A stretch of 64,000 bases of DNA from Bacteroidia bacterium (lineage in GTDB: Bacteria; Bacteroidota; Bacteroidia; Chitinophagales; UBA2359). The position numbers and the translations under genes are program-made. This document shows, one piece after another, positions 20,160-58,706 of this stretch. Positions within the stretch are counted from its first letter, which is position 1. Every line of letters starts with the position of its first letter. The DNA is taken from NCBI GenBank assembly GCA_030427245.1, contig JAUHXA010000001.1:91899-155898 (forward strand), written 5' to 3'. The notes beneath the pieces were generated by a model. That model did not search any database and was not told where the DNA came from. It was given only the letters and a program-made list of their open reading frames with translations.

Positions 20160-20345
20160 CCTAATTAGTTTACGCTTGTTTACTTCAGTTTACTTTGAGT
20201 TGTGAATAGCACTTAAGATTTTATCTATATTAGTAAAGCTACTTTACGTTTGCCTCTTATTAGAGTGTAAGATGTTGTATTTGATTTAATTCGGCGTTTC
20301 TATTAATAACGTGACTTAAGCTTTAGGAAATGTGACTTAACTTTC
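20160..20345 (+). repeat. Diverged, shorter copy of the ~330-bp intergenic element (ends with a bipartite GTGAC motif at 20301-20340)
   Basis: CTAATTAGTTTACGCTTGTTTACTTCAGTTTACTTTGAGTTGTGAATAGCA...TTCTATTAATAACGTGACTTAAGCTTTAGGAAATGTGACTTAAC aligns with 20552-20800. Confidence 0.65.
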
Positions 20346-39844: not shown

Positions 39845-39850
39845 TAATAT

Positions 39851-40356
39851 TTCCAAATCATTTAATACTCTTTTACTATAACGTGTCTAAAAGCCAACAA
39901 AACGTGACCAATTTTGGAATATTTTTTTGAATGGGAGGAAAAACTCAAAATTTTGGGTTCAAATCAATTTGAGACCCTTTTATTATAACGTGTCCAAAAA
40001 CCAACAAAGCGTGACCGATTTTGGAATATTTTTTGAATGGGAGGGAAAAATTAAAATAGTATTTTCAAATCATTTAATGCTCTTTTACTATAACGTGTCC
40101 AAAAACCAACAAAGCGTGACCGATTTTGGAATATTTTTTTGAATGGGAGGGAAAAATTAAAATAGTATTTTCAAATCATTTAATGCTCTTTTACTATAAC
40201 GTGTCCAAAAACCAACAAAGCGTGACCAATCTTGGAATATTTTTTTTGAATGGGAGGGAAAAATTAAAATAGTATTTTCAAATTATTTAATCATCGTTTC
40301 TATTAATAACGTGCCTTGCTTACTCCAAAATGTGACTTGTTTTTTGAAAAAAATCA
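39851..40356 (+). repeat. Tandem array of ~4.7 units of a 105-110-bp repeat, each carrying the bipartite GTG motif
   Basis: The unit reads TTCAAATCATTTAATGCTCTTTTACTATAACGTGTCCAAAAACCAACAAAGCGTGACCGATTTTGGAATATTTTTTGAATGGGAGGGAAAAATTAAAATAGTATT. The first motif cores fall at 39883, 39990, 40095, 40201 and 40311. Confidence 0.9.
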
Positions 40357-40686
40357 AAAACCACAAGCAATTTTTCAACTACTTGTAGTAAAAATTAAGT
40401 CCAGCGCTTAAATCGTTATAAACCCTAATTAGTCCGTTTATTTCGAGTTGTGAGTAGTATTCAAGAATTTTAGTTAAACTAGTAAAGCATTTGCTTCCTA
40501 CTAGTATTTAATCACCCTTTATTTATTGAATAATGTAAACCCCAAAAGTTTCTTATGAGGTGACAATTTGGGGGACTATGATTATAAACTTAATAGGAGA
40601 GGATAAGTGCTGCATCTCATTTAATCATTGTTTCTATTAATGACGTGCCTTGCTTACTGCAAAACGTGACTTGTTTTTTGAAAATA
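40355..40686 (+). repeat. ~330-bp intergenic element, copy B
   Basis: Collinear with 20485-20816. It includes the hairpin ACCACAAG...CTTGTAGT (40360-40389) and the terminal motif TATTAATGACGTGCCTTGCTTACTGCAAAACGTGACTTG. Confidence 0.8.
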
Positions 40687-41746: not shown

Positions 41747-41917
41747 TTTTACATTTATTGTATGTATTAGTAATTTTAGACTTTGGACGAAAGAAGTAGG
41801 ACGTAAGATGCAAGACATAAAACTATGTAAATCAAACACTTAATCAAATTAATGTCCTGCTCACAAATTGTTCATTATCAAGAATTTGAATCCTGCTTCT
41901 TGCTTCTTTGCTCCTTC

Positions 41918-41959
41918 GTCCAAAGTCCAAAGTCCTTCGTCCAAAGTCCAAAGTCCAAA
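41918..41959. repeat. Heptanucleotide microsatellite (GTCCAAA)x6, one unit GTCCTTC
   Basis: gtccaaa gtccaaa gtccttc gtccaaa gtccaaa gtccaaa. It lies 170-210 nt upstream of the 41746 start codon. Related GACTTTGGACGAA words occur at ~4597 and ~41776. Confidence 0.85.
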
Positions 41960-42190
41960 GTATTGGTTTTTAGAAAAATATTTCTTCCTTTGAAGAATCA
42001 GTACGAAAAGAAAGGAAAAAGCAAAAAAGGTTTGTTCGTAAGACAGTTGTATTTTTAATGGCGCATAAACGAAGCCTCTAAAGAAAATCCTATGTTGTTG
42101 ATAGACATATAAATCGCAAATTTTGTGACAGCTACAAGCTTCCAGCACACACCCATTCATGCCGTAAAAAGTGCAATCAATAAAAGGGCT

Positions 42191-43051
42191 TTATGATACA
42201 GTTATTGCTTGCTTCTTACCAAACTCCCTCATAGCAAATTCCGCAAAACTTGTTGGCTCACTGCCCACTATAGTTTTATAATCATCTGTCACTTCCTCTT
42301 CTGAACCCGCTTTCACCCTGTCGTACAGCCAGATACAGTATTTTGCAGCTTCGGCACTCCACCCTTTTTCCACCATTTTATTGACATAGCCCTCATTCGT
42401 CATATCTCTGTATTGCACGTTTCTACTAGAAGCCTTCCCAATTGCAGCAGCGACCTCATCGAAGTCAATCGCTTTAGAACCTGTCAAAGAATAAATTTTG
42501 CCAACATGTCCATCCGTTGTAAGGATTTCTGCAATGGCAATTCCCAAATCCTTCAAATCAAAATAAGCGACTTTGGCTTTTCCTGTTGGCAGACAAATTT
42601 CATCATCCTCTAAGGTTGTTCCCAACCAAGTGTGAAAATTCTGCATATACCAAGCAGGTCGAATGATGCACACATTCGCATCACTATTCTTCAAATCTTG
42701 TTCAATTTCATAGAGAGGTTTGCCTTTATAAGTCCCTGATGTTCCACCAGACTGAAACAATACAAAATCAACTCCCGCTTTTTGGACTGCTTGCATCAAT
42801 TCTCTGGCGATTGCAGGGTCTTTTTTGGGAGGAGGGGCAATGAAAAACAATTTGTTCACACCCTCCAATGCTGCATCGTAGGTGCTTTTATCCAAATAAT
42901 CGAAGTACGCATAGTCCACGCCTTCACCAAGTTGGGCTTTTGCTTTTTCGATATCTCTTACTGCGGCAGTGGGTTTTACACCCTTTGCCTTCAATGCTTT
43001 GATAGCATTTGAGCCAGCATTACCTGTTGCTCCTATGATTAAAATTTTCAT
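42191..43051 (-). CDS. NmrA-like/atypical SDR NAD(P)-binding protein
   Basis: MKILIIGATGNAGSNAIKAL (start at 43051; the ORF track extends to 43150). Confidence 0.75.
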   Translation of the reverse strand: MKILIIGATGNAGSNAIKALKAKGVKPTAAVRDIEKAKAQLGEGVDYAYFDYLDKSTYDAALEGVNKLFFIAPPPKKDPAIARELMQAVQKAGVDFVLFQSGGTSGTYKGKPLYEIEQDLKNSDANVCIIRPAWYMQNFHTWLGTTLEDDEICLPTGKAKVAYFDLKDLGIAIAEILTTDGHVGKIYSLTGSKAIDFDEVAAAIGKASSRNVQYRDMTNEGYVNKMVEKGWSAEAAKYCIWLYDRVKAGSEEEVTDDYKTIVGSEPTSFAEFAMREFGKKQAITVS

Positions 43052-43091
43052 TTCGTGATTGTTTAATAATAAAAAAATAGATGTGTTTGTT

Positions 43092-43952
43092 TTAATTGAC
43101 ACGCATTTCTGCTCCTTGAACTTCCACAACAGGTGTCCCAAATTCTCCATAAGCTACACCAGTAGGATACGCAACCTGAATCTTGTTGTCATACAAAGCT
43201 TTAATGACAGCTTCATTTACTTTTGGGTTCGCTACCCAATATTTTTTGGGATCTAAAGCAAAAGACAAACTCAATTTGATATAGTGTTCGCCATAATCGC
43301 TGAGGTACATAAAAGGTTTGATGCTCGAATCTATTTCGGGAATAGCATAGACTGTATCCGTAATCAACTGCTTGACTTTGAAGAAATCTTCTGTGTAAGG
43401 TACATTTACCTTGACAGCCATTTTTCGGTTGGGAAGGGTAGAAAGATTTTGAATAGTGCCACTCAAAATCATACTATTGGGAATAATCAGCATCGTATTG
43501 TCAAACTCCTTGAAAATGGTGTGAAAAATCTGAATCTCTTTCACAAAGAGCCACTTACCTTGCAATTTTACTTCATCACTTACTTTGAAGGGGCGCATTA
43601 CTAAAATCAATACACCTGCTGCAAAATTGCTTAGATTGCCCTGCAATGCTAATCCTACCGCAAAACCCATTGCAGCGAGAATCCCTACAATAGAAGTTGT
43701 TTCTATTCCTAATATTCCAGCCACACTAATGACCAAGAGTACTTTTAAGCCAAGATTGACAATAGAATGTACGAAAGATTGAATTTCGGGAGTGGTAAAC
43801 TTTGACTTTTTGAGAGAAGCATCTACTAGCCTATTGATGTAATTGATAACCAACCAACCCACTACCAATACGAACAGTGCCATTGCTACCTTTGGAGCAT
43901 ACTCTATGCACATAGAAATAATTTGCTGAACGTAAACATTTGCTTGTTCCAT
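43092..43952 (-). CDS. Small-conductance mechanosensitive channel (MscS family)
   Basis: 286 aa. Three N-terminal TM helices are followed by the pore-helix/beta-domain string ...GLALQGNLSNFAAGVLILVMRPFKVSDEV... Confidence 0.8.
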   Translation of the reverse strand: MEQANVYVQQIISMCIEYAPKVAMALFVLVVGWLVINYINRLVDASLKKSKFTTPEIQSFVHSIVNLGLKVLLVISVAGILGIETTSIVGILAAMGFAVGLALQGNLSNFAAGVLILVMRPFKVSDEVKLQGKWLFVKEIQIFHTIFKEFDNTMLIIPNSMILSGTIQNLSTLPNRKMAVKVNVPYTEDFFKVKQLITDTVYAIPEIDSSIKPFMYLSDYGEHYIKLSLSFALDPKKYWVANPKVNEAVIKALYDNKIQVAYPTGVAYGEFGTPVVEVQGAEMRVN

Positions 43953-43996
43953 AAGAAAAGTATTTTTTAAATTTTTTAATGGTAAATTTTATTATA

Positions 43997-45925
43997 TTAT
44001 TTCGTTTTTCTGCAATCCATCATTAGGTGTTGTCTGATATGTGTTACTTCATTTTCCGTCAATACCCCCAGCAGCTTTCCTTCCTTGACAACAGGCAAAC
44101 AAGCAATAGATTGACTCCCCATCAGCTCAAATGCTTGCTGCAAATCCATTTCTGGCTCAATAACTTGTATCTTTGTCAGCATAATATCTCCTACTGTAAT
44201 CCACTTATCTTTTTCGACAGAATTGGCAAGTGTTTCTGGACTTGGTAATAGATAGCTTACTACCAACCCTACAAAGTCACCTTCAGCATCTTCTGCGGCT
44301 AAAAAATTAAGCTTCTGCCACTTCATAACATTCACTGCCAACTCCGCTACATCCTCTACTCCGATTGTTTGCAAGTCTGTCTGCATCACCTCCTCCACCT
44401 TCAAACCTATTGGAAAGTACCCCTCCAAATTAGCCGATTTGGGCATTTCCCATGTATGCACTGCCCGTTTTTTCCATTGATTTTTGATGATATTTGCTGT
44501 CAATACAGTCAAGGCTTTTTGAGGAGGATTTTTTTTCAGTAAATTGTTATATGCACTCAGAATCCAACTAGCTCCACTGGTTTTTTGCTGAGTTCTTTTT
44601 TCGATGATTCCGAGATATAGATCAATATCCGATGAATCCACACCTCTACTTTTCAATCCCTTTCGGGCGAGTGGGATGAGTTTATGAAGTAATAAATCAG
44701 TCGCCGCTATTTTTTGACCATCCAGCCAAGACAGTTCAGACTCAATTCCATACTTTGCAGCTTTTCCAAAATTTTCCTTCACTTCCACAAATGAAATCCG
44801 CTTCCGCACATCTTCCACTTCCTCTGCCAAGCCAATCATTGTCCCCCACCACAAAGCAGCATTTGCCATTTCATCCTCAACAGTCGGTCCAGCAGGCAAC
44901 ATTCTATTTTCAATCCGCAAATGTGGTTTACCATTCGGACTAATACCATAACAAGGACGATTCCAACGATAAACGGTCGAGTTGTAAATTTGCAGTGCCT
45001 TTAACTGAGGAGTTATTCCTTGCTGAATTTTTTCAAAAGGGTTTTCGACTATATCTCCCGTAATCATCACTTTGAAGCGAGCAATATCTTCTTTGAAAAT
45101 ATCCAAAACGGAATGTTGTACCCAATCGTTACCAAAAATGACACGTGGTCGCCTTTCCTTCAAATACTCACAAGTTAAGCTTGTATCCGAAGCCTGTTGA
45201 TAAAATTTCATTCGTGATTCGTGCCAAAGTCGCTTGCCAAATACAAGGGGCGAATTGGCAGCAGTCGCCAATACAGGACCTGCAAGCGCCTGAGCAATAT
45301 TGTAGTATTTGGCAAATTCGTCTGAAGCTACTTGAAGGTGAAGCTGAAAACTGGTATTGCAGGCCGGCAATAAAGACGAACGAGAATGAAAAACCAACTC
45401 GTCTATGCCTTCCATATGGAACTTAAATTTTCGGTCAGGTATTTGATTTTGCGTATTTTCCAGTATTCCTCTATATCGCTTATTGTTCGTCAAATTGTGC
45501 AAATCCACATCGTAACGATGCAAAGTAGGTAAAATCCCTGTTAGCACTACTTCTGCTCCCAAAGAATGTGCAACAGCTCTGATTGTAGCTAGATAGTCAT
45601 GGCTTTCTCTTACCATTTCGCTCAAAGAATTCCCTTTCAATTCCAAAGGATTCAAATTGGTTTCGAGATTGAACTTTCCCAGCTCTGTTTTCAACCATGG
45701 CTTTTCCTTCAATATTTGCAATATCTGCATGTTGATTGGGCTTGGCTTCAATGAGTGTTTATCTACCAAGAAGATTTCTTGTTCTGCTCCAATTCGGGTG
45801 ATATTGTTTTCGAACCAGTCGTGTTTCAGCAAATACTCCAATGCTGCGACATCCTTTAATAAGGCACGCACGAATTGCTGCACCTGTGTTTGACTTTTTA
45901 CACGAGATACTGTTTGAAGTCCCAT
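43997..45925 (-). CDS. Carboxylate-amine ligase (glutamate-cysteine ligase family 2-like) fused to C-terminal CBS pair
   Basis: 642 aa. N-terminal ...RIGAEQEIFLVD... and ...LHLQV..., typical of GCS2/YbdK-like ligases. The C-terminal ~130 aa have two CBS-like repeats (…VMQTDLQTIGVEDV… and …IMLTKIQVIEPEMDLQQAFELM…CLPVVKEGKLLGVLTENEV). Confidence 0.7.
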   Translation of the reverse strand: MGLQTVSRVKSQTQVQQFVRALLKDVAALEYLLKHDWFENNITRIGAEQEIFLVDKHSLKPSPINMQILQILKEKPWLKTELGKFNLETNLNPLELKGNSLSEMVRESHDYLATIRAVAHSLGAEVVLTGILPTLHRYDVDLHNLTNNKRYRGILENTQNQIPDRKFKFHMEGIDELVFHSRSSLLPACNTSFQLHLQVASDEFAKYYNIAQALAGPVLATAANSPLVFGKRLWHESRMKFYQQASDTSLTCEYLKERRPRVIFGNDWVQHSVLDIFKEDIARFKVMITGDIVENPFEKIQQGITPQLKALQIYNSTVYRWNRPCYGISPNGKPHLRIENRMLPAGPTVEDEMANAALWWGTMIGLAEEVEDVRKRISFVEVKENFGKAAKYGIESELSWLDGQKIAATDLLLHKLIPLARKGLKSRGVDSSDIDLYLGIIEKRTQQKTSGASWILSAYNNLLKKNPPQKALTVLTANIIKNQWKKRAVHTWEMPKSANLEGYFPIGLKVEEVMQTDLQTIGVEDVAELAVNVMKWQKLNFLAAEDAEGDFVGLVVSYLLPSPETLANSVEKDKWITVGDIMLTKIQVIEPEMDLQQAFELMGSQSIACLPVVKEGKLLGVLTENEVTHIRQHLMMDCRKTK

Positions 45926-47088: not shown

Positions 47089-48120
47089 TCATGACATGAC
47101 ACCAGATTTTATTGTAGTAGATTTAATTGCTGCTACAATATTTTTGTGCATTTGAATGCAAATCATTTTATCAGAGAAATCTTTTCTCCAAACAATTCCA
47201 GGCATCGTATTCAATTCGTACACCCATATTTTCCCACTTCTACCTACCCCTATATCAATAGTGTAATATCTGGGCACATACTGATTAAAAGCATTGTCTA
47301 TTTCATAAGCTACCTCTCTGAATCTTTTTGGAAGTTCCCCCACATTAAAATAGAAGAACTCTGCACCACGAGACTGATTACAAATAAAAGTGTTTGCTGG
47401 AGCTACCCTTACAAAAAAGTCTTTGATTTCTCCATTGTAAATAAGTATTCTTAAATCATGCCTACCGTAAATTCCCAATTCTGGAATCCCTAAATCCGAT
47501 TCCATTATAGGCTGAACAATGAATCCTTCTTTTTTGGCAACATAGTCAGACTCCAAATCAGCAAAATTTATTACTTCTATTCCCTTACCCCTTTCTCCAT
47601 ACCGAGGCTTTAGAATAAGCTTATCAGTTCTAAGGTCTGGATGATTTGATGCTGTTCTCAAACTATTACTGATATCAGGTACAGATGTATCAAAAGTTGG
47701 AGGAACGAAATTTGGCAAAAGCTGATAGGTAAGAATTTTGTCTGTCAAGCAATCGCTCATGTCTAAATCATTGAAAAAAATAACCTCGTTTTTAATTAGA
47801 ATATTTCTCAATTCATTAGATTCTGGAAAATTTTGGGGAAGATCCGCATAAGAGGAAGTTATTTCCGATGCTGCAAGTTCAACCATCTTCCACTCACCAT
47901 TTTTGAATATCCATGAAAGTACCTCAGAATCATTTATTGTATTGGCAAAATGCGTGATATAAAGATTGATATTCAATTCATCGCAAAGCATACTTAAATG
48001 TGCATAAGCATCATTAGAGTGTTCTTGATTGAAGGGCTCTTTTTGTCGTACTTGACTGGCAATTGTAGCAATTAAAAGCACATTACTGCGATTGTTCATA
48101 GAGTCATTTAATGAATTCAT
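47089..48120 (-). CDS. ATP-grasp ligase (YheC/YheD-like)
   Basis: 343 aa. ...LILKPRYGERGKGIEVI...FIVQPIM...DLRILIYNGE...YYTIDIGVGRSGKIWVYELNTMPG. Confidence 0.7.
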   Translation of the reverse strand: MNSLNDSMNNRSNVLLIATIASQVRQKEPFNQEHSNDAYAHLSMLCDELNINLYITHFANTINDSEVLSWIFKNGEWKMVELAASEITSSYADLPQNFPESNELRNILIKNEVIFFNDLDMSDCLTDKILTYQLLPNFVPPTFDTSVPDISNSLRTASNHPDLRTDKLILKPRYGERGKGIEVINFADLESDYVAKKEGFIVQPIMESDLGIPELGIYGRHDLRILIYNGEIKDFFVRVAPANTFICNQSRGAEFFYFNVGELPKRFREVAYEIDNAFNQYVPRYYTIDIGVGRSGKIWVYELNTMPGIVWRKDFSDKMICIQMHKNIVAAIKSTTIKSGVMS

Positions 48121-48244
48121 ACTTCTTTTGAATAATTGTCTTGAATAATGTTTGCTATTAATAGCATGACTTTAACAAATAAAAATGTGACCTAATTTTG
48201 AGTTTTTTTAAAAAAAAGTTTTCTTTTTGAAATGTACTTTAAAT

Positions 48245-48285
48245 TAAGTCACATTTTTGCTCCCAATAGATACGTTATTAATAAA
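48245..48285 (-). repeat. Bipartite GTGAC motif (reverse orientation; first half degenerate), plus an extra half-site at 48181-48195 (+)
   Basis: The rc reads TATTAATAACGTATCTATtgggagcAAAAATGTGACTTAA. It lies between the divergent 47089-48120 and sigma-factor genes. Confidence 0.6.
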
Positions 48286-48299
48286 CAACGACTCAAAAT

Positions 48300-48917
48300 A
48301 TGACCCAACAAAACATCATTGAAGGCTTCATCAAAAATGATAAAGAAGTCATTTTATATTTTTACAAAAAACTATTTGCCCAAATAAAGAAGATGATAAT
48401 GGAAAATGGAGGAGATGAAGACGATGTGCGAAACACAATTTGGAAGGCTTTTCACGCATTTAAGATACAATGTCAAAAAAAAGAAAATCATCCCAATAAT
48501 CCCGAAGCCTACATCGTACAAATAGCTCGATTTTTGTGGTATAAAGAATTGAAGCAAAAGAAACGAAAGCAGATGATTCACCAATATTATGATAATCTTC
48601 AAGAAGATATAGAGTTGGTAGAAAGCATTGAAACCACTTTAGTCGAGACCGATAGACAAGAAATTGCTCTCCAATTTCAACAGCAGTTGAACAATATATC
48701 CATCTACTGTCAGCAAATCATCCGATTGAGGTATCAACACGAATTGCCTCATAGCGATATTGCCGCTCGGTACGGAATTTCTGAAACTGCATCTCGAAAA
48801 CGACTGTCTCGCTGCCTAAAAGAATTGGCACGTTTTATTGACTCAAAGGGACTTACCAATCAAATAGCGCATCATTTTCCTTCTGTTATTAAGTATGTTA
48901 AAAAACATGTCCATTAA
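48300..48917 (+). CDS. Sigma-70 family (ECF-like) RNA polymerase sigma factor
   Basis: 205 aa. Region-2-like: ...DDVRNTIWKAFHAF...YIVQIARFLWYKE. Region-4 HTH: CQQIIRLRYQHELPHSDIAARYGISETASRKRLSRCLKEL. Confidence 0.8.
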   Translation: MTQQNIIEGFIKNDKEVILYFYKKLFAQIKKMIMENGGDEDDVRNTIWKAFHAFKIQCQKKENHPNNPEAYIVQIARFLWYKELKQKKRKQMIHQYYDNLQEDIELVESIETTLVETDRQEIALQFQQQLNNISIYCQQIIRLRYQHELPHSDIAARYGISETASRKRLSRCLKELARFIDSKGLTNQIAHHFPSVIKYVKKHVH

Positions 48918-48978
48918 TATATTTTTTACTTAATTTTTAAAGTTATATTTTTATTAATTACACCTAAATTCTCGACTC

Positions 48979-49557
48979 ATGGACTTCAACGAATTAGCTG
49001 ACAAATTTTTAAATGACCAATTGAATGAGCAAGAACGTACACAATTTGACGAGCTACTAAAAAATCCTGACTTTATGGAATCAACCTATCTCAGCGTACT
49101 TTTAAAACAATCATTTAAGAAAAACGACGACCTCCAATTTTTAAGAACGCTTAAGGAAGTAGAACAAACCTTCTATTATCAACAATCCTATACTTTGGAA
49201 GAATTATTGGCTTGTTTTTCTCCTGTTCAAGAATATGAAGATAACCTGTCGACCGTTAGCAGGGCAAGCGATGTAGAAATTTTGCATCCCAAAAACCACA
49301 TCAATTGTGTTGATAACCTGTATTTTGAATGGAGCAAACCCAATCACATTCCTCTATTGCTTATCATCGAAAACAATGAATACGATGTATTGATTCGCAA
49401 AGAAATCCCTATTCAAACGCTCTCATTCAGCATCAATTTGGACTTCAAAAAAGGCTTCAAGCCTGGTCGCTATTATTGGAAATTGACCTCCAAAAGGCAT
49501 GAGATTTCTGCAATAGGGGCGTTTTTTATTGCAAAAGACCTACTCAAAAGAACTTGA
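48979..49557 (+). CDS. Hypothetical soluble protein, anti-sigma-like N-terminus
   Basis: 192 aa. It sits 61 nt downstream of the sigma gene. The N-terminus ELADKFLNDQLNEQERTQFDELLKNPDF resembles the N-terminal helices of short anti-sigma factors. No TM segment. A GGGGCAA...TTGCCCC hairpin follows at ~49585-49611. Confidence 0.55.
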   Translation: MDFNELADKFLNDQLNEQERTQFDELLKNPDFMESTYLSVLLKQSFKKNDDLQFLRTLKEVEQTFYYQQSYTLEELLACFSPVQEYEDNLSTVSRASDVEILHPKNHINCVDNLYFEWSKPNHIPLLLIIENNEYDVLIRKEIPIQTLSFSINLDFKKGFKPGRYYWKLTSKRHEISAIGAFFIAKDLLKRT

Positions 49558-49629
49558 TTGTATTTTTTACAACTCAATACCAACGGGGGCAAAACCCAAA
49601 ACTTGCCCCCTTCAATTAAAAGTACAACA

Positions 49630-50141
49630 AGTTACTCCCAAATACTTACACATTGCAGCACATGGAGTTTCCAATCGCCGCAAAAACGTATTGGGAATTT
49701 TGGTTTCACCAGAGAAAGAGGCACGAAGTGCTTATACCTTCAATGTCATTCCTTCAAAAAAAAACTCCTTTGCAGGCTCGACAACAAACAACTTCCTCGC
49801 CCCAAAGTACCATTTTGTATGCCCACGAACTGTATCAATTGAAGCTCAAAAGCGATCTGGTCTTTTTGAGTTGCTGCGAAAGTGGCGTAGGCAAAATTGC
49901 AGCAAGGGAAGGAATTTTATCCCTTAACAGAGGTCTGCTGTATGTAGGTATTCCCAACATTGTTTTTACCCTCTTCAAAATTTACGACCCAAAAACCGCC
50001 ATTTTTGCCCATCATTTCTACGATTATCTGCTGAATCAAGAAGACAACTATACCGAAGCCTTGCGTTATGCCAAGTTACAATTATTGAAGGAAGATTTGC
50101 CGCCGAGATATTGGGGAACTGAGTATTGCCATATTTTGTAA
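49630..50141 (+). pseudogene. Orphan C-terminal CHAT cassette (frameshifted)
   Basis: Nucleotide-level homolog of 53458-53966, covering TPKYLHIAAHG through LPPRYWG. The A9 tract at ~49756-49764 (A8 in the intact paralog) shifts the frame. The last codons are replaced (…YWGTEYCHIL*). The N-terminal ~800 codons are missing. The three overlapping track ORFs (49529-, 49558-, 49653-) are pieces of this one remnant. Confidence 0.8.
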
Positions 50142-50162
50142 TAGTATGTTTTTTTCTTCCAA

Positions 50163-50200
50163 AGAGGTCACATTTTTTCTCGCCTTAGTCACGCTTAATA
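50163..50200 (-). repeat. Bipartite GTGAC motif (reverse orientation)
   Basis: The rc reads TATTAAGCGTGACTAAggcgagaaaAAATGTGACCTCTT. The cores (50167-50171 and 50188-50192) are 21 bp apart. Confidence 0.75.
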
Positions 50201-50331
50201 TGCAGGTAAATTACTTAAAAAAAGTCTTCTTGACTTGAAGTAAAAAAGGGTTATCCAAAACCTTGTAAAAAAAGTGGACGCAAAGCCAAAAGCGATAGAG
50301 TAGGCACTCATTTAATATAAATTGTAAACCA

Positions 50332-50664
50332 ATGACAATTACAGTAAACCAAAATCAAAACGTACAAGTATTACACCTTAATGGAAAGCTTACAATTGGC
50401 TATGACATGGATTTAAGAAATAAGGTGATGGAACTGGTAGATGCAGGAAATAAAAATTTTGTTATTGACCTAAAACAGGTTCCTCGCATGGATTCTTCTG
50501 GCATGGGAATGCTTATAAATATCCATGTAATAATGAATAGTGAGGGGGGAAGACTCATACTTTGTGAAGCAAACTCCCAAATAATACAACTTTTGGAACT
50601 AGCTCAATTGGATAGTATATTGGAAATAGTTTCAACAGAACAGGAAGCAGTGAGTTCCTTCTAA
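50332..50664 (+). CDS. STAS-domain protein (anti-sigma-factor antagonist, SpoIIAA/RsbV-like)
   Basis: 110 aa. ...VLHLNGKLTIGYDMDLRNKVMELVDAGNKNFVIDLKQVPRMDSSGMGMLINI..., carrying the conserved DSSG phosphorylation-site context. Confidence 0.8.
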   Translation: MTITVNQNQNVQVLHLNGKLTIGYDMDLRNKVMELVDAGNKNFVIDLKQVPRMDSSGMGMLINIHVIMNSEGGRLILCEANSQIIQLLELAQLDSILEIVSTEQEAVSSF

Positions 50665-50849
50665 GTAATAGCAGTCTTAGAATATAGAAATACAGACTAA
50701 GTAAAAAAGAAAAAATAACTCATCGACCAATATTCCCCTTTTGAAAAGCCTGCCCCGATTTCTCGGTGGGGGATGGGGTATGTTAGCAAAAAAAAACGAA
50801 GAGTTATTTTTTTACCCTTACTAAGGCAAATTCGAACTAAAAGAACTTG

Positions 50850-50891
50850 ACCACAAGCGACCTCAATGGTTGTTTGTGGTTTTTTGTTGTT
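50850..50891 (+). terminator. Rho-independent terminator
   Basis: ACCACAAGCGA cctcaatgg TTGTTTGTGGT (11 pairs including 2 G-U), followed by TTTTTGTTGTT. Confidence 0.7.
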
Positions 50892-51041
50892 CAGAAAAGT
50901 AAGTCTCATGGAGATAAATTATTTCTTTCCTATATTTGTCATTGTTTTCAGTTTTCTTTCAAGCAAAAAATATTTTTGTTGCTAAACTGATTAAAAATTG
51001 TTTGAGGAAATCAAATAATTCCATTTTTTGTTTATTAAGCT

Positions 51042-53966
51042 ATGAACAACTCTATTGATTTGACCACTGTACAGGCAGATGCCTTATTTGAACAAGGAGA
51101 AAATCTTTTTCAAAAAGATAGTAGTAGCGATTACTATGTTTTTTTTGAAAAAGCATCTGAGATATACTGGAAAGTTGAAAATTGGGAAAAATACCTATGG
51201 TGTCAATGCAAAATGACGGATTGGCTGAATGTAAAAAATCATGTCCAAAAGGCAAAAAAAATCACAGAGGAGGGATTGGAGCTATGTAATCAAAAAATAA
51301 CTGTACCTCACGAATTGAAAGCTGAATTTCATTATAGGTTGTTTAAGTGCAATTTTCTTCAACGCCATTATGAACAAGCCCACCTCCATGCAGCCCAAAT
51401 GCTTGAAATAGCGCAAGCCTTGAATCATAATAGACTCACCGCAAAGGCATATCTATCAATGGCTAATGTTAACATGCACACTGAAAAATATGCACATAGT
51501 TTATCTCTTTTATTCAAAGCACTGCCTTATACGAAAGAATCGGCTGACAAATCAGAGAAAATAGATTTATGGAAATCAATAGGTCATGCTTACTTTCATT
51601 TGAAGCAATACCAACTTTCCAAAATTTACTTTTTGAGGACGGTCTATTTATTCAAACAGCACTTTGGAAGCGATTCTCTTTTTCTTGCCAATCCCATGAT
51701 AATGCTGGGAAAGATTGATATGCGAGTAGGTGACTATACGGAAGCATTGAAGCATTACGAAAAAGCTTTGAAAATCAAAGAAAAACATGCTATCGAAGAT
51801 GTAGAACTGTCTTATCTATTTTCTTTGTTGGGAGAGATTTATTTTCTTTTAGAAAAATGGGAGAATGCAGATAACTATTTTGAAAAAGCCATCAGAACAC
51901 AAAAAAACATCAATGAGAAGGATTTTAGATGGTTTGCTGCCGCCTATTATCAATGGGCAAACCTACATTTACAACAAAATCGCCTAAAACAAGGAAGACA
52001 GTTCTTAGAAAAAGCCAAGGCAGTTTTACTCCCTACTAATGCTGCGTTTTTAATGGCTCATACTTATCTATTGGAAGTAGATTTTGCTTGTGCAGCGCAT
52101 GAATTTAACTACGCATTGAAGGTGGTAACACAAGCAAACAAATATGTTGAAGATGTTGGGGTCAATAAAAAAGCGGATAGCCACTTATTGAAGTTTTCAT
52201 TGTATGAAAAACAACTAAATGTTTATTGGAACCTTTATCAAAATAGTTCTTCAAAAACCTTCTTGGAAAAAGGACATCAACTATTGCCTAAAATCCAGCA
52301 ACACATTGAGAGTGTACGTTTATCTTTTTTTAATGAGGCAGATAAATTGACATTCAATCAAGCTGCGACCAACATTTACCATCTTTCGATTAATCTCTTG
52401 TATGTGCTTTATTCACTGCAACCGAGTAAAAAGCTTTTAGAAGAAATTTTTTCTGTATCAGAAAAAAATAAAGTACACAGCCTATTGGCTTCTATTCAAA
52501 GCTTTGAAGCACTGCAATTATCCAAAATTCCTAAACAACACATAGAGAAGCTACAAATGCTTCCATCACAGATAAATAATTGTCAAGTATTCTTAACACA
52601 GCAAGGGAAAAGACTCCTCCCAGAAGAAAAATTTGATGAAAAATCAAAGGAGTTAGCTCGGCTCCAAATCCAATACCATCAGCTTATTCTCCAAATAGAA
52701 CAAGAAAATCCAGCATATTTTGCATTGAAACATCAGATGCCTTCTATTCACTTGAGCGATTTCCAAGTTCAACTAGCCCATCACCAAATTGCGATTAGTT
52801 ATGTACTTGAAGCGGAATTTTTGTATCTATTATACATAGACAATCAGAATATTCACCTAAAGAGAATTTCTCTTCCTCCCCATTTCCCTCAATTATTGGA
52901 TACCTTTATTGATGAGGCCATTTTGGGCATGAACCGCAAAGCTTATGTCAAACAAGCCCACCAATTGTACCAATTGCTCATCGCTCCAATTGAAGGAAAA
53001 CTAAATCAAAACAAAATTCAATCGTTGCTGATTCTTCCAGACAGTCACTTATTGGAACTGCCCTTTGGATTATTGTTGACTGAAGCAAGTTCTTTCAAAA
53101 CGGCTTATTCATCTCTCCCCTATTTACTCAAAAAATACAACATTACCTACCATTATTCCGCTACTTTGCGGCAATATCAACAGCAGCGAAACCAAGGCTC
53201 TAAAAACTTAACCCCTCAATTTTTGGGCTTTGCACCTGTTTACGACAATCAACACTTTCCCTCTGAAGTATCTGAAGCCCTACCTGCATTGGCAACGAGA
53301 GATATTTCCATTCGGGGAAGTCACTACAAGGCATTGCTTTATTCCGAAAAAGAGGTGAAAGACATTGAAGATACTTTTCGAGAAAAGGGCTACAATTCAC
53401 AGGTTTTTCTACGTTCAAAAGCCAATTTGACACGATTCAAAGAAAAAGCACAAAGATTTACTCCCAAATACTTACACATTGCAGCACATGGAGTTTCCAA
53501 TCGCCGCAAAAATGTGTTGGGGATTTTGTTTTCACCAGAGAAAGAGGCACTAAGTGCTTCTACCTTCAATGTCATTCCTTCAAAAAAAACTCCTTTACAG
53601 GCTCGCCAACAAACAGCTTCCTCGTCCCAAAGTGCCATTTTGTATGCCCACGAACTGTATCAATTGAAGCTCAAAAGTGATTTGGTGTTTTTGAGTTGTT
53701 GTGAAAGTGGTGTAGGCAGAATTGCAGAAGGGGAAGGCATTTTGTCGCTCAACAGAGGCCTCTTGTATGCAGGTGTTCCCAACATCGTTTTTACCCTCTT
53801 CAAGATTTACGACCAAACCACCGCCATTCTTGCCCATCATTTCTACGATTATCTACTGAATCAAGAAGACAATTATGCCCAAGCCTTGCGTTATGCCAAG
53901 CTGCAATTATTGAAGGAAGATTTGCCGCCGAGGTATTGGGGTGGTTTTTTGTTATTAGGAGATTGA
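51042..53966 (+). CDS. TPR-repeat + CHAT domain protein, paralog 2
   Basis: 974 aa with the same architecture as paralog 1. Catalytic His is in YLHIAAHGVSN and Cys in LVFLSCCESGVGR. Confidence 0.9.
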   Translation: MNNSIDLTTVQADALFEQGENLFQKDSSSDYYVFFEKASEIYWKVENWEKYLWCQCKMTDWLNVKNHVQKAKKITEEGLELCNQKITVPHELKAEFHYRLFKCNFLQRHYEQAHLHAAQMLEIAQALNHNRLTAKAYLSMANVNMHTEKYAHSLSLLFKALPYTKESADKSEKIDLWKSIGHAYFHLKQYQLSKIYFLRTVYLFKQHFGSDSLFLANPMIMLGKIDMRVGDYTEALKHYEKALKIKEKHAIEDVELSYLFSLLGEIYFLLEKWENADNYFEKAIRTQKNINEKDFRWFAAAYYQWANLHLQQNRLKQGRQFLEKAKAVLLPTNAAFLMAHTYLLEVDFACAAHEFNYALKVVTQANKYVEDVGVNKKADSHLLKFSLYEKQLNVYWNLYQNSSSKTFLEKGHQLLPKIQQHIESVRLSFFNEADKLTFNQAATNIYHLSINLLYVLYSLQPSKKLLEEIFSVSEKNKVHSLLASIQSFEALQLSKIPKQHIEKLQMLPSQINNCQVFLTQQGKRLLPEEKFDEKSKELARLQIQYHQLILQIEQENPAYFALKHQMPSIHLSDFQVQLAHHQIAISYVLEAEFLYLLYIDNQNIHLKRISLPPHFPQLLDTFIDEAILGMNRKAYVKQAHQLYQLLIAPIEGKLNQNKIQSLLILPDSHLLELPFGLLLTEASSFKTAYSSLPYLLKKYNITYHYSATLRQYQQQRNQGSKNLTPQFLGFAPVYDNQHFPSEVSEALPALATRDISIRGSHYKALLYSEKEVKDIEDTFREKGYNSQVFLRSKANLTRFKEKAQRFTPKYLHIAAHGVSNRRKNVLGILFSPEKEALSASTFNVIPSKKTPLQARQQTASSSQSAILYAHELYQLKLKSDLVFLSCCESGVGRIAEGEGILSLNRGLLYAGVPNIVFTLFKIYDQTTAILAHHFYDYLLNQEDNYAQALRYAKLQLLKEDLPPRYWGGFLLLGD

Positions 53967-54048
53967 TTTTTGCCTGCTATTTCTTATTTGTAAGCAATAA
54001 ATTCTCTTTTTCGTAAATTTGTGTTTTTTGTAAACAACTGCACTTATT

Positions 54049-56964
54049 ATGAAAGGGGTTAATTTGAATAAAGATATAGCAAAAGCAGATGAATTATTTG
54101 AAGAAGGGGAATGTCTATTTCAAGCAAACAATGCCAATGATTACTACGATTTTTTTGAAAAGGCATCTATCACCTATCAATTTTTTGAAAATTGGGAGAA
54201 GTACCTATGGTGTCAGTATAGAATAACTATTTGGCTGTGTGTGAGACATCAAATTCAAAAAGCGAAGGATATTGCAGAAAATGAATTGGAGAGATGTTTA
54301 CAAAAAATAGTTGGAGAGCATGAGTTGAAAGCAGAATTTCACTACAGATTGTTTTACTGCAATTTTTATCAAGCAAATTACGAATCTGCTACCTATCATG
54401 CAAATGAATGTCTAAAAATAGCACAGGCTCTAAATCATTCGACACTCATTATAAAAGCTTACAATGCAATTGCGAGCATAAATTTACATCTTGAAAAATA
54501 CACAGAGGGTTTATCATTTTTATTCAAGGCGCTGTCTTATTCAAAGTTTTTGGCTCAAAATTTAGAAACAATTCACATCTATCAAACGATGGGTCATGCG
54601 TATTTTCATTTAAGACAATTTCACCTTTCTCGTGTTTATTTTTTGAGAACGATTGATTTGTATAAAAAACTATTTGGAAATGAGTATCCCCCTCTCACCA
54701 ATTGTATGCTGATGATGGGCATGATAGACACAGAACAAGAAAGTTTCTCAGAGGCATTAGAATACTTTAGCAAACTTATAGACATTAAGGAAAAGTTACA
54801 AATTGAAGATAGAGAGCTTACAAGTACATTGTTTTATTTGGCAAAAATCAATGTTTATTTAGGAAATTGGGAGAAGGCAGGAGAATATTTTGAAAAATCC
54901 ATTAGCGTTCAGGAACGTATTCAAGAAAATAGTTATCGGTGGTTTGCAAATACTTATTATACATGGGCTAACATACATATAGAGAATGGTCATTTTGAAG
55001 TTGGCAAGTTTTATTTGGAAAAGGCAATTACAACACTTCCCTCAGAAACCACCTTGCCTCTTATACATGCTTACTTATTGAAAGTCGACATTGCGTTGAA
55101 AGAAAACAAATATACTGATGCGCTTAATTATATTGGAATGGTTCGGGATTGTTTGAGAAATATTATTGCAAACCAATCGGGGGAGTGGCGATTTCTTCAA
55201 TTTTCATTTTATAAAAGGCAGCTATTTATATACTGGAAACTTTATTTGGAAAACCATTCAATAACCTACTTACAAAAAGGAAATGCGCTTTTGTCTAAGG
55301 CTCTTCAACTCATTGATGAAACACGCATGAGTTTGTTTTCTAATTTAGATAAGTTGGAGTTCAATCAAACTGCAATAAGTATTTATCATACTGCGATTAA
55401 CCTAACTTATGCGCTTTTCTCAATCAATCGTGAGCATAAACTATTGGAACAAATATTCATTCTATCTGAAAAAAGCAAAGTTCATAGTCTTTTAGCTTCG
55501 ATTCAAGATTTTGAAGCACTTCAACTGACCAATATCCCCAAAAAACAGACGACAAAATTGCTAAAACTTCAATCACAAATAAAAGATTATCAAAAATATT
55601 TGGAAGTAAATGAAGCAGATATAAGTAAAGAAAATTTTGATAAAAATGCGGAAGAACTTGCTAACCTTCAAGTTCGATACCATCAACTTATACAACAAAT
55701 AGAACAAGAAAATTCCGAATATTTTGCGTTGAAACATCAGATGCCTTCTATTCACTTGAGCGATTTCCAAGTTCAACTAGCCCATCACCAAACTGCGATT
55801 AGTTATGTACTTGAAGCGGAATTTTTGTATATACTATACATGGACAATCAAAACCTCCATCTAACGAGTATTTCTCTTCCTGCTCATTTTCCTCAATTAT
55901 TGGATACTTTTATTGACGAAGCAATTTTGGGCATGAATCGCAAAGTTTTTGTAGAACAAGCACACCAATTGTATCAATTGCTTATCCTTCCCATTGAAGG
56001 AAAATTAAAACAAAACAAAACTCAATCTCTGCTGATTCTTCCAGATAGTCACCTATTGGAACTTTCCTTTGGCTTGCTATTGACTGAAGCGACTCCCTTC
56101 AAAACAGCGTATTCCAATATGCCGTATTTGTTCAAAGAATACAGCATTACCTACCATTATTCCGCTACTTTGCGGCAATATCAACAACAGCGAAACAAAG
56201 GCTCCAAGAACTTGCCCCCTCAATTTTTGGGTTTCGCTCCCGTTTACGATACCCAACAATTTCCCTCCAATGTGTCCGAAGCCCTACCTGCATTGGCAAC
56301 AAGGGATGTTTCCATTCGGGGTACTCACTACAAGGCATTGCTTTATTCTGAAAAAGAGGTGAAAGACATTGAAGATACTTTTCGAAAAAAAGGCTGGAAT
56401 TCACAGGTTTTTCTGCGTTCAAAAGCCAATTTGACACAATTTAAAGAAAAAGCACAGCAATTTACTCCTAAATACTTACACATCGCAGCACATGGAGTTT
56501 CCAATCGCCGCAAAAATGTATTGGGGATTTTGTTTTCGCCCGACAAAAAACAGACTCCAATTTCGACTGATACCTCCTCCAATGCAAATCCTCTCGAACC
56601 TCGACAACAAAATGCTTTATCTACTCAAAGTGCCATTTTGTATGCCCACGAACTGTATCAACTAAAGCTCAAAAGCGACTTGGTTTTTTTGAGTTGTTGC
56701 GAAAGTGGGGTAGGTAAAATTGCAGCAGGAGAAGGGATTTTATCGCTCAATCGGGGCTTGTTGTATGCAGGTGTTCCCAACATCGTTTTTACCCTCTTCA
56801 AGATTTATGACCAAAAAACAGCCATTTTTGCCCACCATTTTTACGATTATTTGCTGAATCAAGAAGACAATTATGCTCAAGCTTTGCGCTATGCCAAGCT
56901 GCAATTATTGAAGGAAGATTTGCCGCCGAGGTATTGGGGTGGGTTTTTGTTGTTGGGGAATTGA
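54049..56964 (+). CDS. TPR-repeat + CHAT domain protein, paralog 3
   Basis: 971 aa, 82 nt downstream of paralog 2. The C-terminal 150 aa are identical to paralog 1 except the last residue. Confidence 0.9.
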   Translation: MKGVNLNKDIAKADELFEEGECLFQANNANDYYDFFEKASITYQFFENWEKYLWCQYRITIWLCVRHQIQKAKDIAENELERCLQKIVGEHELKAEFHYRLFYCNFYQANYESATYHANECLKIAQALNHSTLIIKAYNAIASINLHLEKYTEGLSFLFKALSYSKFLAQNLETIHIYQTMGHAYFHLRQFHLSRVYFLRTIDLYKKLFGNEYPPLTNCMLMMGMIDTEQESFSEALEYFSKLIDIKEKLQIEDRELTSTLFYLAKINVYLGNWEKAGEYFEKSISVQERIQENSYRWFANTYYTWANIHIENGHFEVGKFYLEKAITTLPSETTLPLIHAYLLKVDIALKENKYTDALNYIGMVRDCLRNIIANQSGEWRFLQFSFYKRQLFIYWKLYLENHSITYLQKGNALLSKALQLIDETRMSLFSNLDKLEFNQTAISIYHTAINLTYALFSINREHKLLEQIFILSEKSKVHSLLASIQDFEALQLTNIPKKQTTKLLKLQSQIKDYQKYLEVNEADISKENFDKNAEELANLQVRYHQLIQQIEQENSEYFALKHQMPSIHLSDFQVQLAHHQTAISYVLEAEFLYILYMDNQNLHLTSISLPAHFPQLLDTFIDEAILGMNRKVFVEQAHQLYQLLILPIEGKLKQNKTQSLLILPDSHLLELSFGLLLTEATPFKTAYSNMPYLFKEYSITYHYSATLRQYQQQRNKGSKNLPPQFLGFAPVYDTQQFPSNVSEALPALATRDVSIRGTHYKALLYSEKEVKDIEDTFRKKGWNSQVFLRSKANLTQFKEKAQQFTPKYLHIAAHGVSNRRKNVLGILFSPDKKQTPISTDTSSNANPLEPRQQNALSTQSAILYAHELYQLKLKSDLVFLSCCESGVGKIAAGEGILSLNRGLLYAGVPNIVFTLFKIYDQKTAIFAHHFYDYLLNQEDNYAQALRYAKLQLLKEDLPPRYWGGFLLLGN

Positions 56965-56991
56965 AGTTTCCATTTTGAAATGTAATTTTCG

Positions 56992-58452
56992 CTACAAATT
57001 CACAAATAAATCATCTAAGGTCAATGTTTGAGAAAAAATAGCCTGACTATGTACATTTTCTACAACCCCTTGTGCAGCAATCAACACATAAAAAATCTGT
57101 TTTTGGGTTTTGGTTATGCTTTTGAATATACTCCGTTTTTGCCTCAAATTATCTGCATAAGATTTGGAAACGATAAAAGGGTCTGCATAAAATTTAATCT
57201 CAAAAAGATTGATAGCTCCATCATTGCGGTCAATCAATAAATCTATTTGTGTGCCTGATTCTGTAGAAGAGCCTTTGTAGTAAAAAGAGGAAGACAAAGA
57301 ATAAATTCCCGCTATGTCCAAACTCTTTTTTATCTGTGGAATGTGCTTTAAACACAAACTTTCAAACGCATAACCACTCCAAGTTTTAAAGGCTTGTGTT
57401 TGGCTGAGGTGATTCCAAACCGATTTGCCCTCATAGGCTTTTCTTTCAATAAACTTTAGGTAAAACAAGGAATACTCATCTGTGAGTCGGTAGAGGCGAT
57501 TTTTCTTCTTTTTGTTAAAAGGGCGATAGGCAGAGATGAAGCCCGAATACTCCAATTCCTCCAATACACGGGTAGTGCTATTGCCATTTGGAAGGTTCAC
57601 AGTTTTAATGATTTCATTTCTGGTCAAGCCTTTTTGTTTGGTAGCCAAAGCTCTGATAACGGCAATGTGCTTGTCTGCATGGGCAAATAAAGCAGGGTAA
57701 AGGCGAGAAAATTCGGTACGGAGTAAGCCATTTGGGGAAAAGCAAATTTGATTGATATTTTGAACAGCCGTTTTTCCTCTTTGCACTTCTTTCAAATGAT
57801 GCGGAATGCCGCCCAATGCCAAATACAATTGAGTGATTTGATAACGGGTGAAGTCAAAATCTTTTGCTTGAAAGTAAGTTTCCGTTTCTGCCAAAGTAAA
57901 AGGGGATAAAAAAATACGTTTGGTTACCCGATTGTAAAGTCCTCCTTTGTTATTGATGACTTTTTGAATCATCCAAGATGCTGCCGAACCACATACCACC
58001 AAGACGATGTTTTTTTTGGCTGCCCAACTGTTCCAGAAATAACTCAAACCTGTTAAAAAACCCGATTTATGGGTGGACAACCAAGGCAATTCATCTAAGA
58101 ACACCACCTTTTTTTCCGCTCCAAGTTGTTCATCTAAGTAAGTCGTCAATATATCAAAAGCACGCAACCAACTTTTGGGTCTTTCCAAAGGAATTTTGGA
58201 TTGGGTTAGTTTTGTCAATCGAATCGCAAAATTGTCCAACTGTTCTGCTTTGGTAGCATCCTGCAAACCTGTTATTTGAAAAACGATTTGGTCTTGGTAA
58301 ACAGACTCAATTAAGTAAGTCTTACCTACTCGCCTGCGTCCAATCACTGCAATCATTTCCGCCTCTTTGGAGCTAAGGGCAGCTTCCAAAATTTCTTTTT
58401 CTTCATTTCGACCAATAAAAAAGCTTGCCATAGTATAGAGTATTTCTGACAA
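56992..58452 (-). CDS. P-loop ATPase of the Arch_ATPase (PF01637)/DUF234 type
   Basis: 486 aa. FIGRNEEKEILEAALSSKEAEMIAVIGRRRVGKTYLI (Walker A), VVFLDELPWL (Walker B), and a C-terminal winged-helix/DUF234-like region. It is convergent with CHAT paralog 3, with a 27-nt gap. Confidence 0.75.
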   Translation of the reverse strand: MSEILYTMASFFIGRNEEKEILEAALSSKEAEMIAVIGRRRVGKTYLIESVYQDQIVFQITGLQDATKAEQLDNFAIRLTKLTQSKIPLERPKSWLRAFDILTTYLDEQLGAEKKVVFLDELPWLSTHKSGFLTGLSYFWNSWAAKKNIVLVVCGSAASWMIQKVINNKGGLYNRVTKRIFLSPFTLAETETYFQAKDFDFTRYQITQLYLALGGIPHHLKEVQRGKTAVQNINQICFSPNGLLRTEFSRLYPALFAHADKHIAVIRALATKQKGLTRNEIIKTVNLPNGNSTTRVLEELEYSGFISAYRPFNKKKKNRLYRLTDEYSLFYLKFIERKAYEGKSVWNHLSQTQAFKTWSGYAFESLCLKHIPQIKKSLDIAGIYSLSSSFYYKGSSTESGTQIDLLIDRNDGAINLFEIKFYADPFIVSKSYADNLRQKRSIFKSITKTQKQIFYVLIAAQGVVENVHSQAIFSQTLTLDDLFVNL

Positions 58453-58632: not shown

Positions 58633-58706
58633 TGGAGGTCGAGAGCGGATTCGAACCGCTGTACAAGGTTTTGCAGACCTCTGCCTAGCCACTCGGCCAC
58701 TCGACC
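58633..58706 (-). tRNA. tRNA-Cys: tRNA-Cys (anticodon GCA), CCA encoded
   Basis: The rc reads GGTCGAGTGGCCGAGTGGCTAGGCAGAGGTCTGCAAAACCTTGTACAGCGGTTCGAATCCGCTCTCGACCTCCA. Acceptor stem: 7 bp, GGTCGAG/CTCGACC. Anticodon stem GAGGT/ACCTT with loop CTGCAAA. T arm AGCGG-TTCGAAT-CCGCT. The discriminator is U, as expected for tRNA-Cys. Confidence 0.9.

Follow-up and report, generated by a model that had tools for sequence, protein, structure and literature searches.

A possible protease-gated sigma factor switch among recurrently linked ECF-type sigma, soluble partner and TPR-CHAT genes in Bacteroidota

What a sigma factor gene might have to do with the large proteases encoded beside it is the question raised by a 64,000-nucleotide stretch of Chitinophagales (Bacteroidota) DNA, here called the window (contig JAUHXA010000001.1, positions 91,899 to 155,898). 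A preliminary description, made from the sequence alone, had listed a sigma factor, a 192-aa open reading frame (ORF), a decayed CHAT gene, a STAS protein, two tandem TPR-CHAT proteases (A and B), an ATPase and a tRNA-Cys within and just beyond positions 48,300 to 58,452, and had proposed a signalling or conflict locus. Each of these elements was found in place (Table 1). A third intact TPR-CHAT gene (C) and a SET-domain gene lie about 30 kb upstream of this main locus, beyond the coordinates of that description, and belong to the same system. The interpretation favoured here, held tentatively as possible if not quite probable, is that of a CRISPR-independent, protease-gated sigma factor switch, in which the TPR-CHAT proteases would cleave the product of the 192-aa ORF, termed the partner, and so free an autoregulated sigma factor.

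The adjacency of a sigma gene, a small ORF and a TPR-CHAT gene, which the preliminary description proposed to look for in other Bacteroidota, recurs there and is a non-random association. One genome per species was scanned with the invariant peptide PGRYYWKL of the partner family as the seed, a sample that is biased towards members keeping this peptide. The scan yielded 17 loci, 16 of them from Bacteroidota metagenome-assembled genomes (MAGs) of the Chitinophagales, Saprospiraceae and Sphingobacteriales and one from the Calditrichaceae. Sigma genes were called with our own hidden Markov models and Pfam, and the contexts of further close relatives (L001, L007, L009, L027 and L028) were obtained by exact protein look-up. 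Some genomes contain several partner paralogs, with five in one MAG. A gene for an ECF-like sigma factor of about 200 aa is immediately upstream of the partner in 13 of the 17 scanned loci, the other four being cut by a contig end or differing in arrangement, and in the window and all five close relatives, too, the partner gene comes straight after the sigma gene.

TPR-CHAT genes encoding 900 to 1120 aa directly adjoin the sigma/partner pair in 8 of the 17 scanned loci. Of all 18 informative loci, 12 have a TPR-CHAT gene within approximately 2 kb of the pair, with differing flanks and in every relative orientation. All 11 CHAT genes present in the approximately 190 kb of scanned loci adjoin a pair, and none is found elsewhere in those loci. 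The order sigma (or contig start), partner, CHAT, CHAT on one strand is seen in L013 and L014, where a full CHAT gene thus follows the small ORF, as the preliminary description had expected. The pair is flanked by one CHAT gene on each side in L016, has a divergent CHAT gene in L018, and has a convergent one in L019, L023, L025 and L026. Among the close relatives, L028 has sigma, partner and a convergent CHAT974, and L027 has, besides a partner gene, a sigma gene whose product is 47% identical to that of the window; its CHAT976 gene is at a distance of 2 kb. In L001, CHAT970, STAS, a 44-aa ORF, SET and CHAT974 are on one strand, with sigma and partner divergent from them. L007 ends in a SET gene and is uninformative.

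The 205-aa sigma protein belongs to the ECF (group IV) sigma-70 family, scoring 54.4 bits against NCBIfam TIGR02937 (sigma70-ECF; cut-off 42.9) and matching Pfam Sigma70_r4_2 at 7.7e-8, with Sigma70_r4 likewise above its cut-off. It is a divergent member: Pfam Sigma70_r2 was undetected in it, and the distant members of the linked sigma set have only sub-threshold matches to this region. Orthologues with 72 to 78% identity are present in Chitinophagales MAGs. Of the other families for which the preliminary description had suggested searches, CHAT, TPR and STAS were all matched. The ATPase, which had been called Arch_ATPase/DUF234, matches ATPase_2 (PF01637), DUF234 being undetected by Pfam.

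The partner has no Pfam hit at E <= 1 and no NCBIfam hit. A word-based search with the 192-aa protein found eight close relatives only, all in Chitinophagales metagenome genomes, and a family profile built from these eight identified 337 representatives (50% clustering) at E <= 1e-3, 126 of them at E <= 1e-10. Nearly all members are 185 to 230 aa in length. They begin with a conserved helix, IExYLxGxLxxxExxxFE, of the kind found at the N-termini of anti-sigma factors, followed by a variable, low-confidence stretch, the strongly conserved YTLEELLxMFxPxxxYE, and a C-terminal domain in which PGRYYWKL is invariant. The AlphaFold2 (AF2) model of the partner has six helices, then a confident seven-strand beta-sandwich, for which the closest fold match in the PDB is the DUF3244 protein BT_1867. 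Pfam DUF3244 is matched by 16 of 39 family members, and zf-HC2 by 2 of the 39, weakly (best E=1e-3). A PDB profile search with the family gave chance-level matches only, and the partner sequence shows neither a transmembrane (TM) segment nor a signal peptide. The gap between the sigma and partner genes is 61 nt, and the same gene order is found in more than 20 loci.

That the 192-aa ORF encodes an anti-sigma factor, as had been proposed, is plausible because it is directly downstream of the sigma gene, has an N-terminal helix of the expected kind, and belongs to a family in which two of 39 members have a weak zf-HC2 match.

The three TPR-CHAT proteins are predicted peptidases of the CHAT family (caspase-like clan CD). 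A, B and C each cover positions 3 to 289 of the 289-position CHAT profile (PF12770; E=1e-47 to 1e-52). All three, and their orthologues, keep the catalytic His in HIAAHG and the catalytic Cys in FLSCCES. No signal peptide or TM segment was found in any Bacteroidota CHAT protein adjoining a pair, which therefore is in the same compartment as the partner; proteins with both features are frequent among more distant TPR-CHAT homologues. A PDB sequence search with CHAT-A found TPR proteins only and thus connects it at the sequence level to none of Csx29, separase and DdvA.

The two halves of these proteases have evolved differently. The tandem paralogs A and B have 65% amino acid identity overall. 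By their TPR halves, A, B, L001-CHAT970 and P0012 form type I, with mutual identities of 44 to 52% (45% between A and L001-CHAT970), and C and L001-CHAT974 form type II, with 41%. Identity between the types is 27 to 33%, and between C and A or B 27 to 30%. The C-terminal halves, made up of the linker and the CHAT domain, are 86% (A-B), 78% (A-C) and 83% (B-C) identical within the window genome and 70% identical for the pair in L001, against 60 to 69% for orthologues between genomes. Synonymous divergence between A and B is saturated over codons 1 to 480 and just 0.5 to 0.7 over codons 540 to 974. Because the CHAT halves are more alike within a genome than between orthologues, and given this pattern of synonymous divergence, the protease half alone is under concerted evolution, through gene conversion or recombination. 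Gene conversion between the paralogs had been suggested before, and with an outgroup genome as the control the suggestion is borne out. The accompanying idea of a diversifying sensor family was not upheld: no sign that the TPR halves are under diversifying selection was found, and these are two old orthologous types that have been kept between genomes.

The CHAT relic begins right after the stop codon of the 192-aa ORF. At the DNA level, positions 49618 to 50116 are 90.6% identical to nucleotides 2403 to 2900 of CHAT-A, with 81.6% identity to B and 80.9% to C, and the His and Cys motifs are still readable in spite of one frameshift. The 3' flank of the relic is homologous to the flank downstream of CHAT-C and also to the stretch between SET and STAS in L001, where the 44-aa ORF encodes a CHAT C-terminus (DFYDYLLNQEDNY...RYWGGFLLLGD). 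It follows that a CHAT remnant was already present just upstream of STAS before the two genomes diverged. The relic is the scar of an ancestral recombination, more eroded in L001, and a role for it as a donor, in keeping with the silent cassette of the preliminary description, is unsupported. The two part-clusters of the window, SET and C at 15.8 to 19.3 kb and sigma through B at 48.3 to 57 kb, together make up the gene set that is contiguous in L001, and they have a downstream D-Ala-D-Ala-ligase-like gene context in common.

A bipartite, promoter-like motif was noticed through a conserved flank. It reads GTCACATTT-N15-ACGYT, that is GTCAC[AG][TC]TT-N15-ACG[CT]T. With two or fewer mismatches it is present 14 times in the window, where 0.94 are expected (maximum of 3 in 100 shuffles), and 4 times in L001, where 0.38 are expected. 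It precedes the sigma start codon by 22 to 25 nt in the window and in L001, L007, L009 and L028, and in the aligned sigma upstream regions of these five loci GTCACA and ACG are the sole invariant blocks; L027 keeps the first half of the motif at the same position. In L001 the motif is also 16 nt upstream of the SET gene. L007 and L009 have 2 to 3 similar tandem copies, approximately 93 nt apart and divergent from sigma. The motif is absent from the remaining parts of these close loci and from every distant locus, and in the distant loci no equivalent motif common to the upstream regions of sigma and of CHAT genes was seen by eye. The fixed distance from the start codon, consistent orientation and bipartite shape suggest a promoter used by the sigma factor, which would then regulate its own gene and a local regulon. 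A CRP-type operator was considered and rejected, the half-elements being direct rather than inverted and their position relative to start codons being fixed.

These findings are compatible with the following sequence of events. The ECF-type sigma factor would be co-transcribed with the soluble partner of about 190 aa, and we infer that the N-terminal helices of the partner bind the sigma factor and hold it inactive. The DUF3244-like beta-sandwich and the conserved linker would supply the docking and cleavage sites. The cytoplasmic TPR-CHAT proteases, of two old TPR types, would sense a cue through their TPR arrays and, once activated, would cut the partner and free the sigma factor. Free sigma factor would then transcribe from the motif-bearing promoters, giving positive feedback, with predicted targets that include the sigma operon, the STAS gene (perhaps with CHAT-A and CHAT-B downstream), the SET/CHAT-C unit and several neighbouring operons. 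A more specific version, in which each TPR type detects a different intracellular cue, the protein cut is a soluble anti-sigma factor of a new class with a DUF3244-like docking domain, the regulon is marked by the motif and takes in further genes of the protease module, and the module is a CRISPR-independent counterpart of Craspase and its sigma release, is offered with greater reserve.

In its logic, type III-E Craspase is the closest known system. There, the TPR-CHAT protease Csx29 cleaves Csx30, and CASP-sigma is freed; the N-terminal part of Csx30 (565 aa) binds sigma, its C-terminal domain docks on the protease, and the cut is made in a loop of that domain, at residues 427-429 (PMC10028731). 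Both systems have a cytoplasmic TPR-CHAT gene beside an ECF-like sigma factor and a soluble two-domain inhibitor, a putative one in the present case. CASP-sigma has binding sites inside its own locus, and the motif of the window is likewise within the locus that its sigma factor is presumed to control. The differences are that Cas7-11, Csx31 and a CRISPR array are not found in the window, which places the system outside Craspase, and that the partner is much shorter than Csx30, has a DUF3244-like sandwich and has no demonstrated sequence relationship to it. Target RNA bound to Cas7-11 cannot be the activating signal here, and the module has two to three paralogous proteases whose TPR arrays differ. 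No Cas domain is encoded in any sizeable ORF of the window, and L001 also lacks a CRISPR-like repeat array.

DdvA likewise couples TPR-CHAT to an ECF sigma/anti-sigma pair, and protease-triggered release of sigma has been proposed for it. In this single membrane protein, an N-terminal zinc anti-sigma domain and a TM helix are fused to a periplasmic TPR-CHAT domain with an incomplete CHAT active site (PMC11506125), whereas in the present system the parts are separate and soluble, the CHAT proteins contain no anti-sigma domain and CHAT matches the full Pfam model, so that it is not of the DdvA type. ECF54 sigma factors are also linked genomically to CHAT-domain proteins, as well as to carboxypeptidase and subtilase proteins, and proteolytic control was proposed for them from gene context alone (PMC8999054; PMC7826278). 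They are actinobacterial and are said to lack an anti-sigma factor (PMC8999054; PMC7826278), unlike the Bacteroidota module, where a dedicated partner follows the sigma gene. In a further system, PCaspase, once activated by a SAVED-CHAT protease, cuts a putative sigma factor (bioRxiv 10.1101/2023.06.23.546230). The module of sigma factor, DUF3244-like partner and TPR-CHAT in Bacteroidota is undescribed in the searchable literature, subscription-only papers aside.

Some of the loci encode further proteins next to TPR-CHAT genes. In L018 (3374-5452, - strand) a 692-aa protein with Peptidase_C14 (caspase) and TPR domains is directly downstream of the TPR-CHAT gene; there are thus two caspase-fold proteases in one module, reminiscent of the cascade from SAVED-CHAT to PCaspase. 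In L027 (1388-2506, - strand) the next gene after TPR-CHAT encodes a 372-aa protein with a match to actin (PF00022). Genes for type IX secretion cargo (Por_Secre_tail or CHU_C, with PKD, SprB or HYR repeats) are within 10 kb of the pair in L013, L016, L017, L019, L020, L023 and L024, and were not counted as a linked component, such genes being abundant in these genomes.

Several observations weigh against a protease-gated switch, and a number of them favour a conventional sigma/anti-sigma pair that responds to another signal and has TPR-CHAT, STAS and SET as the outputs of its regulon, in stress, cell death or protein processing. On the side of the partner, the 192-aa protein does not have the features of a class I anti-sigma factor (PF13490/zf-HC2, HxxxCxxC): its N-terminal helices have no His or Cys ligands and HxxxCxxC is absent. 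AF2 applied to a fused chain of partner and sigma gave a model (pLDDT 85, pTM 0.52) in which the sigma part is extended and unsequestered. The homologue rows of this alignment were unpaired, MAFFT placed the last 12 to 18 residues of the partner rows on the sigma tail, and the deeper alignment alone could account for the higher pLDDT of the partner helices in the fused model. A Foldseek search with the fused model was uninformative. The sample of loci is small, from one peptide pattern as the seed and mostly from short MAG contigs, and it includes six (L009, L011, L017, L020, L021 and L024) in which the pair has no CHAT gene within 5 to 10 kb, or, in L009, within the contig. In these genomes CHAT is therefore not obligatory or else acts in trans, and the same six loci are in keeping with CHAT as an output.

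On the side of the motif, the fact that it precedes STAS and SET in the window and L001 alike fits CHAT, STAS and SET as sigma targets just as well as it fits them as regulators, and conserved neighbours of ECF sigma genes may be targets rather than regulators (PMC7826278). None of the three CHAT genes of the window is directly preceded by an exact copy of the motif. Between STAS and CHAT-A there is a terminator-like hairpin with a 14-bp stem and a T-run (50849-50881, + strand), and CHAT-A is preceded by a housekeeping-type TAnnTTTG element. The proteases may therefore be expressed constitutively, and CHAT-A and CHAT-B may be independent of the motif. This counts against the proposed switch and also against the CHAT genes being outputs of the sigma factor. 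The hairpin could terminate or attenuate read-through from the STAS promoter.

The output interpretation is further weakened by the loci in which CHAT is convergent with or divergent from the pair, no shared motif having been seen there. In addition, a soluble anti-sigma factor with a small beta-sandwich as its only sensor domain needs an input, and a linked TPR protease is the obvious candidate. On balance, CHAT as an output alone is rather unlikely, though it keeps real weight, and the two interpretations are not mutually exclusive.

A second alternative is partner switching, in which the STAS protein would antagonise the 192-aa partner or a kinase encoded elsewhere, and the CHAT proteases would process STAS or another component. 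The STAS protein resembles SpoIIAA and RsbV, matching PF01740 (E=5.9e-20) and scoring 68.2 bits against TIGR00377, the anti-sigma-antagonist model (cut-off 53.45), and it retains the serine of the DSSG site. Its position, after the CHAT relic and the motif and before a type I CHAT gene, is the same in the window and in L001. However, STAS is in these two closest loci only, being absent from L027, L028 and the 17 genome loci (phmmer E <= 1e-3), and it is an accessory rather than a core component of the module, contrary to the role given to it earlier. The partner switching of SpoIIAA and RsbV also involves a kinase and a phosphatase. That the window lacks an RsbW/SpoIIAB-type kinase and a PP2C phosphatase had been noted before and was corroborated, as no HATPase_c or SpoIIE/PP2C domain is encoded in any sizeable ORF of the 64 kb, and the partner, as modelled by AF2, does not have the fold of a kinase. 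Partner switching is thus improbable, and less likely than either the protease-gated switch or the output interpretation.

The same low standing applies to the possibility that the TPR-CHAT proteins work on their own as conflict or abortive-infection effectors and share a defence island with the ATPase, the sigma/partner pair being nearby by chance: CHAT proteases do have roles in CRISPR type III and CBASS-like defence (PMC10028731; bioRxiv 10.1101/2023.06.23.546230), the paralogs have multiplied and recombine, and the ATPase, which adjoins a tRNA gene, matches the PADLOC model PDC-S27 (PDLC04984; E=1.2e-194, residues 12 to 483 against profile positions 4 to 473 of 474), but the linkage of sigma, partner and CHAT recurs across genomes with differing flanks and orientations and the ATPase is in none of the related loci, PADLOC finds nothing for the CHAT proteins past a generic TPR match, nothing for the partner or STAS and a marginal match alone for sigma (PDC-M01B, E ~1e-3), and the window has no compositional break, CRISPR array or cas gene. 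The PDC systems of PADLOC are candidates rather than validated defence systems, PDC-S27 being a single-gene one, and the ATPase, which had been counted as part of the system, is an unrelated neighbour that is a phage-defence candidate. As no defence-system model matches the CHAT genes, the earlier conflict or abortive-infection reading is speculation.

Table 1. Positions of the genes and motif copies discussed (window coordinates unless a locus is named)
Feature	Position	Strand	Size, evidence or context
Sigma factor, ECF-type, divergent	48300-48917	+	205 aa; Pfam and NCBIfam
Soluble partner, putative anti-sigma factor	48979-49557	+	192 aa; family profile, AF2 fold
CHAT relic, last ~190 codons, frameshifted	about 49568-50141	+	blastx
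STAS protein, anti-sigma-antagonist type	50332-50664	+	110 aa; PF01740, TIGR00377
TPR-CHAT protease A, TPR type I	51042-53966	+	974 aa; CHAT E=8.4e-51 and TPR families
TPR-CHAT protease B, TPR type I	54049-56964	+	971 aa; CHAT E=1e-47
Convergent ATPase	56992-58452	-	486 aa; ATPase_2 (PF01637); PDC-S27
tRNA-Cys	58633-58706	-	
TPR-CHAT protease C, TPR type II	15805-18738	-	977 aa; CHAT E=1.3e-52
SET-domain protein	18856-19347	-	163 aa; PF00856 E=4.8e-10; directly upstream of CHAT-C
SPFH/Band_7 gene	38990-39856	-	
Motif GTCACATTT-N15-ACGTT, exact	48248..48276	+	ends 23 nt upstream of sigma start codon
Motif, second exact copy	50167..50195	+	136 nt upstream of STAS gene
Motif, orthologous STAS site	L001 5313-5341		83 nt upstream of L001 STAS
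Motif, exact	20308..20336	-	upstream of transcription unit with SET and CHAT-C
Motif, 1 mismatch	48163..48191	-	42 nt upstream of ATP-grasp operon (47089-48120, -), divergent from sigma promoter
Motif copies	15729-15757 and 14830-14858	-	precede genes downstream of CHAT-C
Motif tandem array, ~five 106-nt units, each GTCACGYTT-N15-ACGTT	39817-40670	-	upstream of SPFH/Band_7 gene

Two extra copies of the motif are at 40308 and 40642. The tRNA was the sole match in an Rfam scan of the window. The two halves of the CHAT cluster are separated by a long run of enzyme genes, mostly on the - strand (20834-48120). It includes genes for SMP-30/gluconolactonase, 2OG-Fe dioxygenase, P-type ATPase, ABC transporter, arginase-family, dehydroquinase II, HMGL-like, 2-hydroxyacid dehydrogenase, methyltransferase and amine oxidase proteins, three DUF697 proteins, a GCS2+CBS protein and two ATP-grasp ligases. 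This run may be a small-molecule or peptide-modification cluster, and the promoter-like motif is present at its ATP-grasp end. Genes for CBS, DUF3078, MscS and NmrA proteins (40793-45925, 3 to 8 kb upstream of sigma) are also found in MAG SGMAG-61 (L029 1-7028), where they are followed by a type I TPR-CHAT gene; the wider neighbourhood is thus syntenic with L029 although the module is rearranged. A further large TPR signalling protein, of 1351 aa, is encoded at 238-4293 (+ strand) and combines an adenylate/guanylate cyclase, AAA_16 (STAND-like NTPase) and a long TPR array.

If the more specific version of the switch is correct, type III-E CRISPR systems would have borrowed their sigma-release output from an older and more widespread bacterial signalling module. 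Sigma factors released by CHAT- or caspase-coupled proteases have to date been known only from the outputs of CRISPR type III and CBASS-like systems, or from DdvA, and the present module would follow the same logic without CRISPR. The previously unnamed partner family, of about 200 aa, provides a set of candidate soluble anti-sigma factors. Within a genome, the homogenised protease halves set against old, divergent sensor halves make a clear case of domain-specific concerted evolution. The system is also compact and amenable to testing: it has a single sigma factor and a single candidate substrate of about 190 aa, its proteases number two or three, and the predicted promoter motif offers a read-out of activity. 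In Bacteroidota and Cyanobacteria, TPR-CHAT proteins abound and hardly any has been characterised; they may be general signal-sensing proteases.

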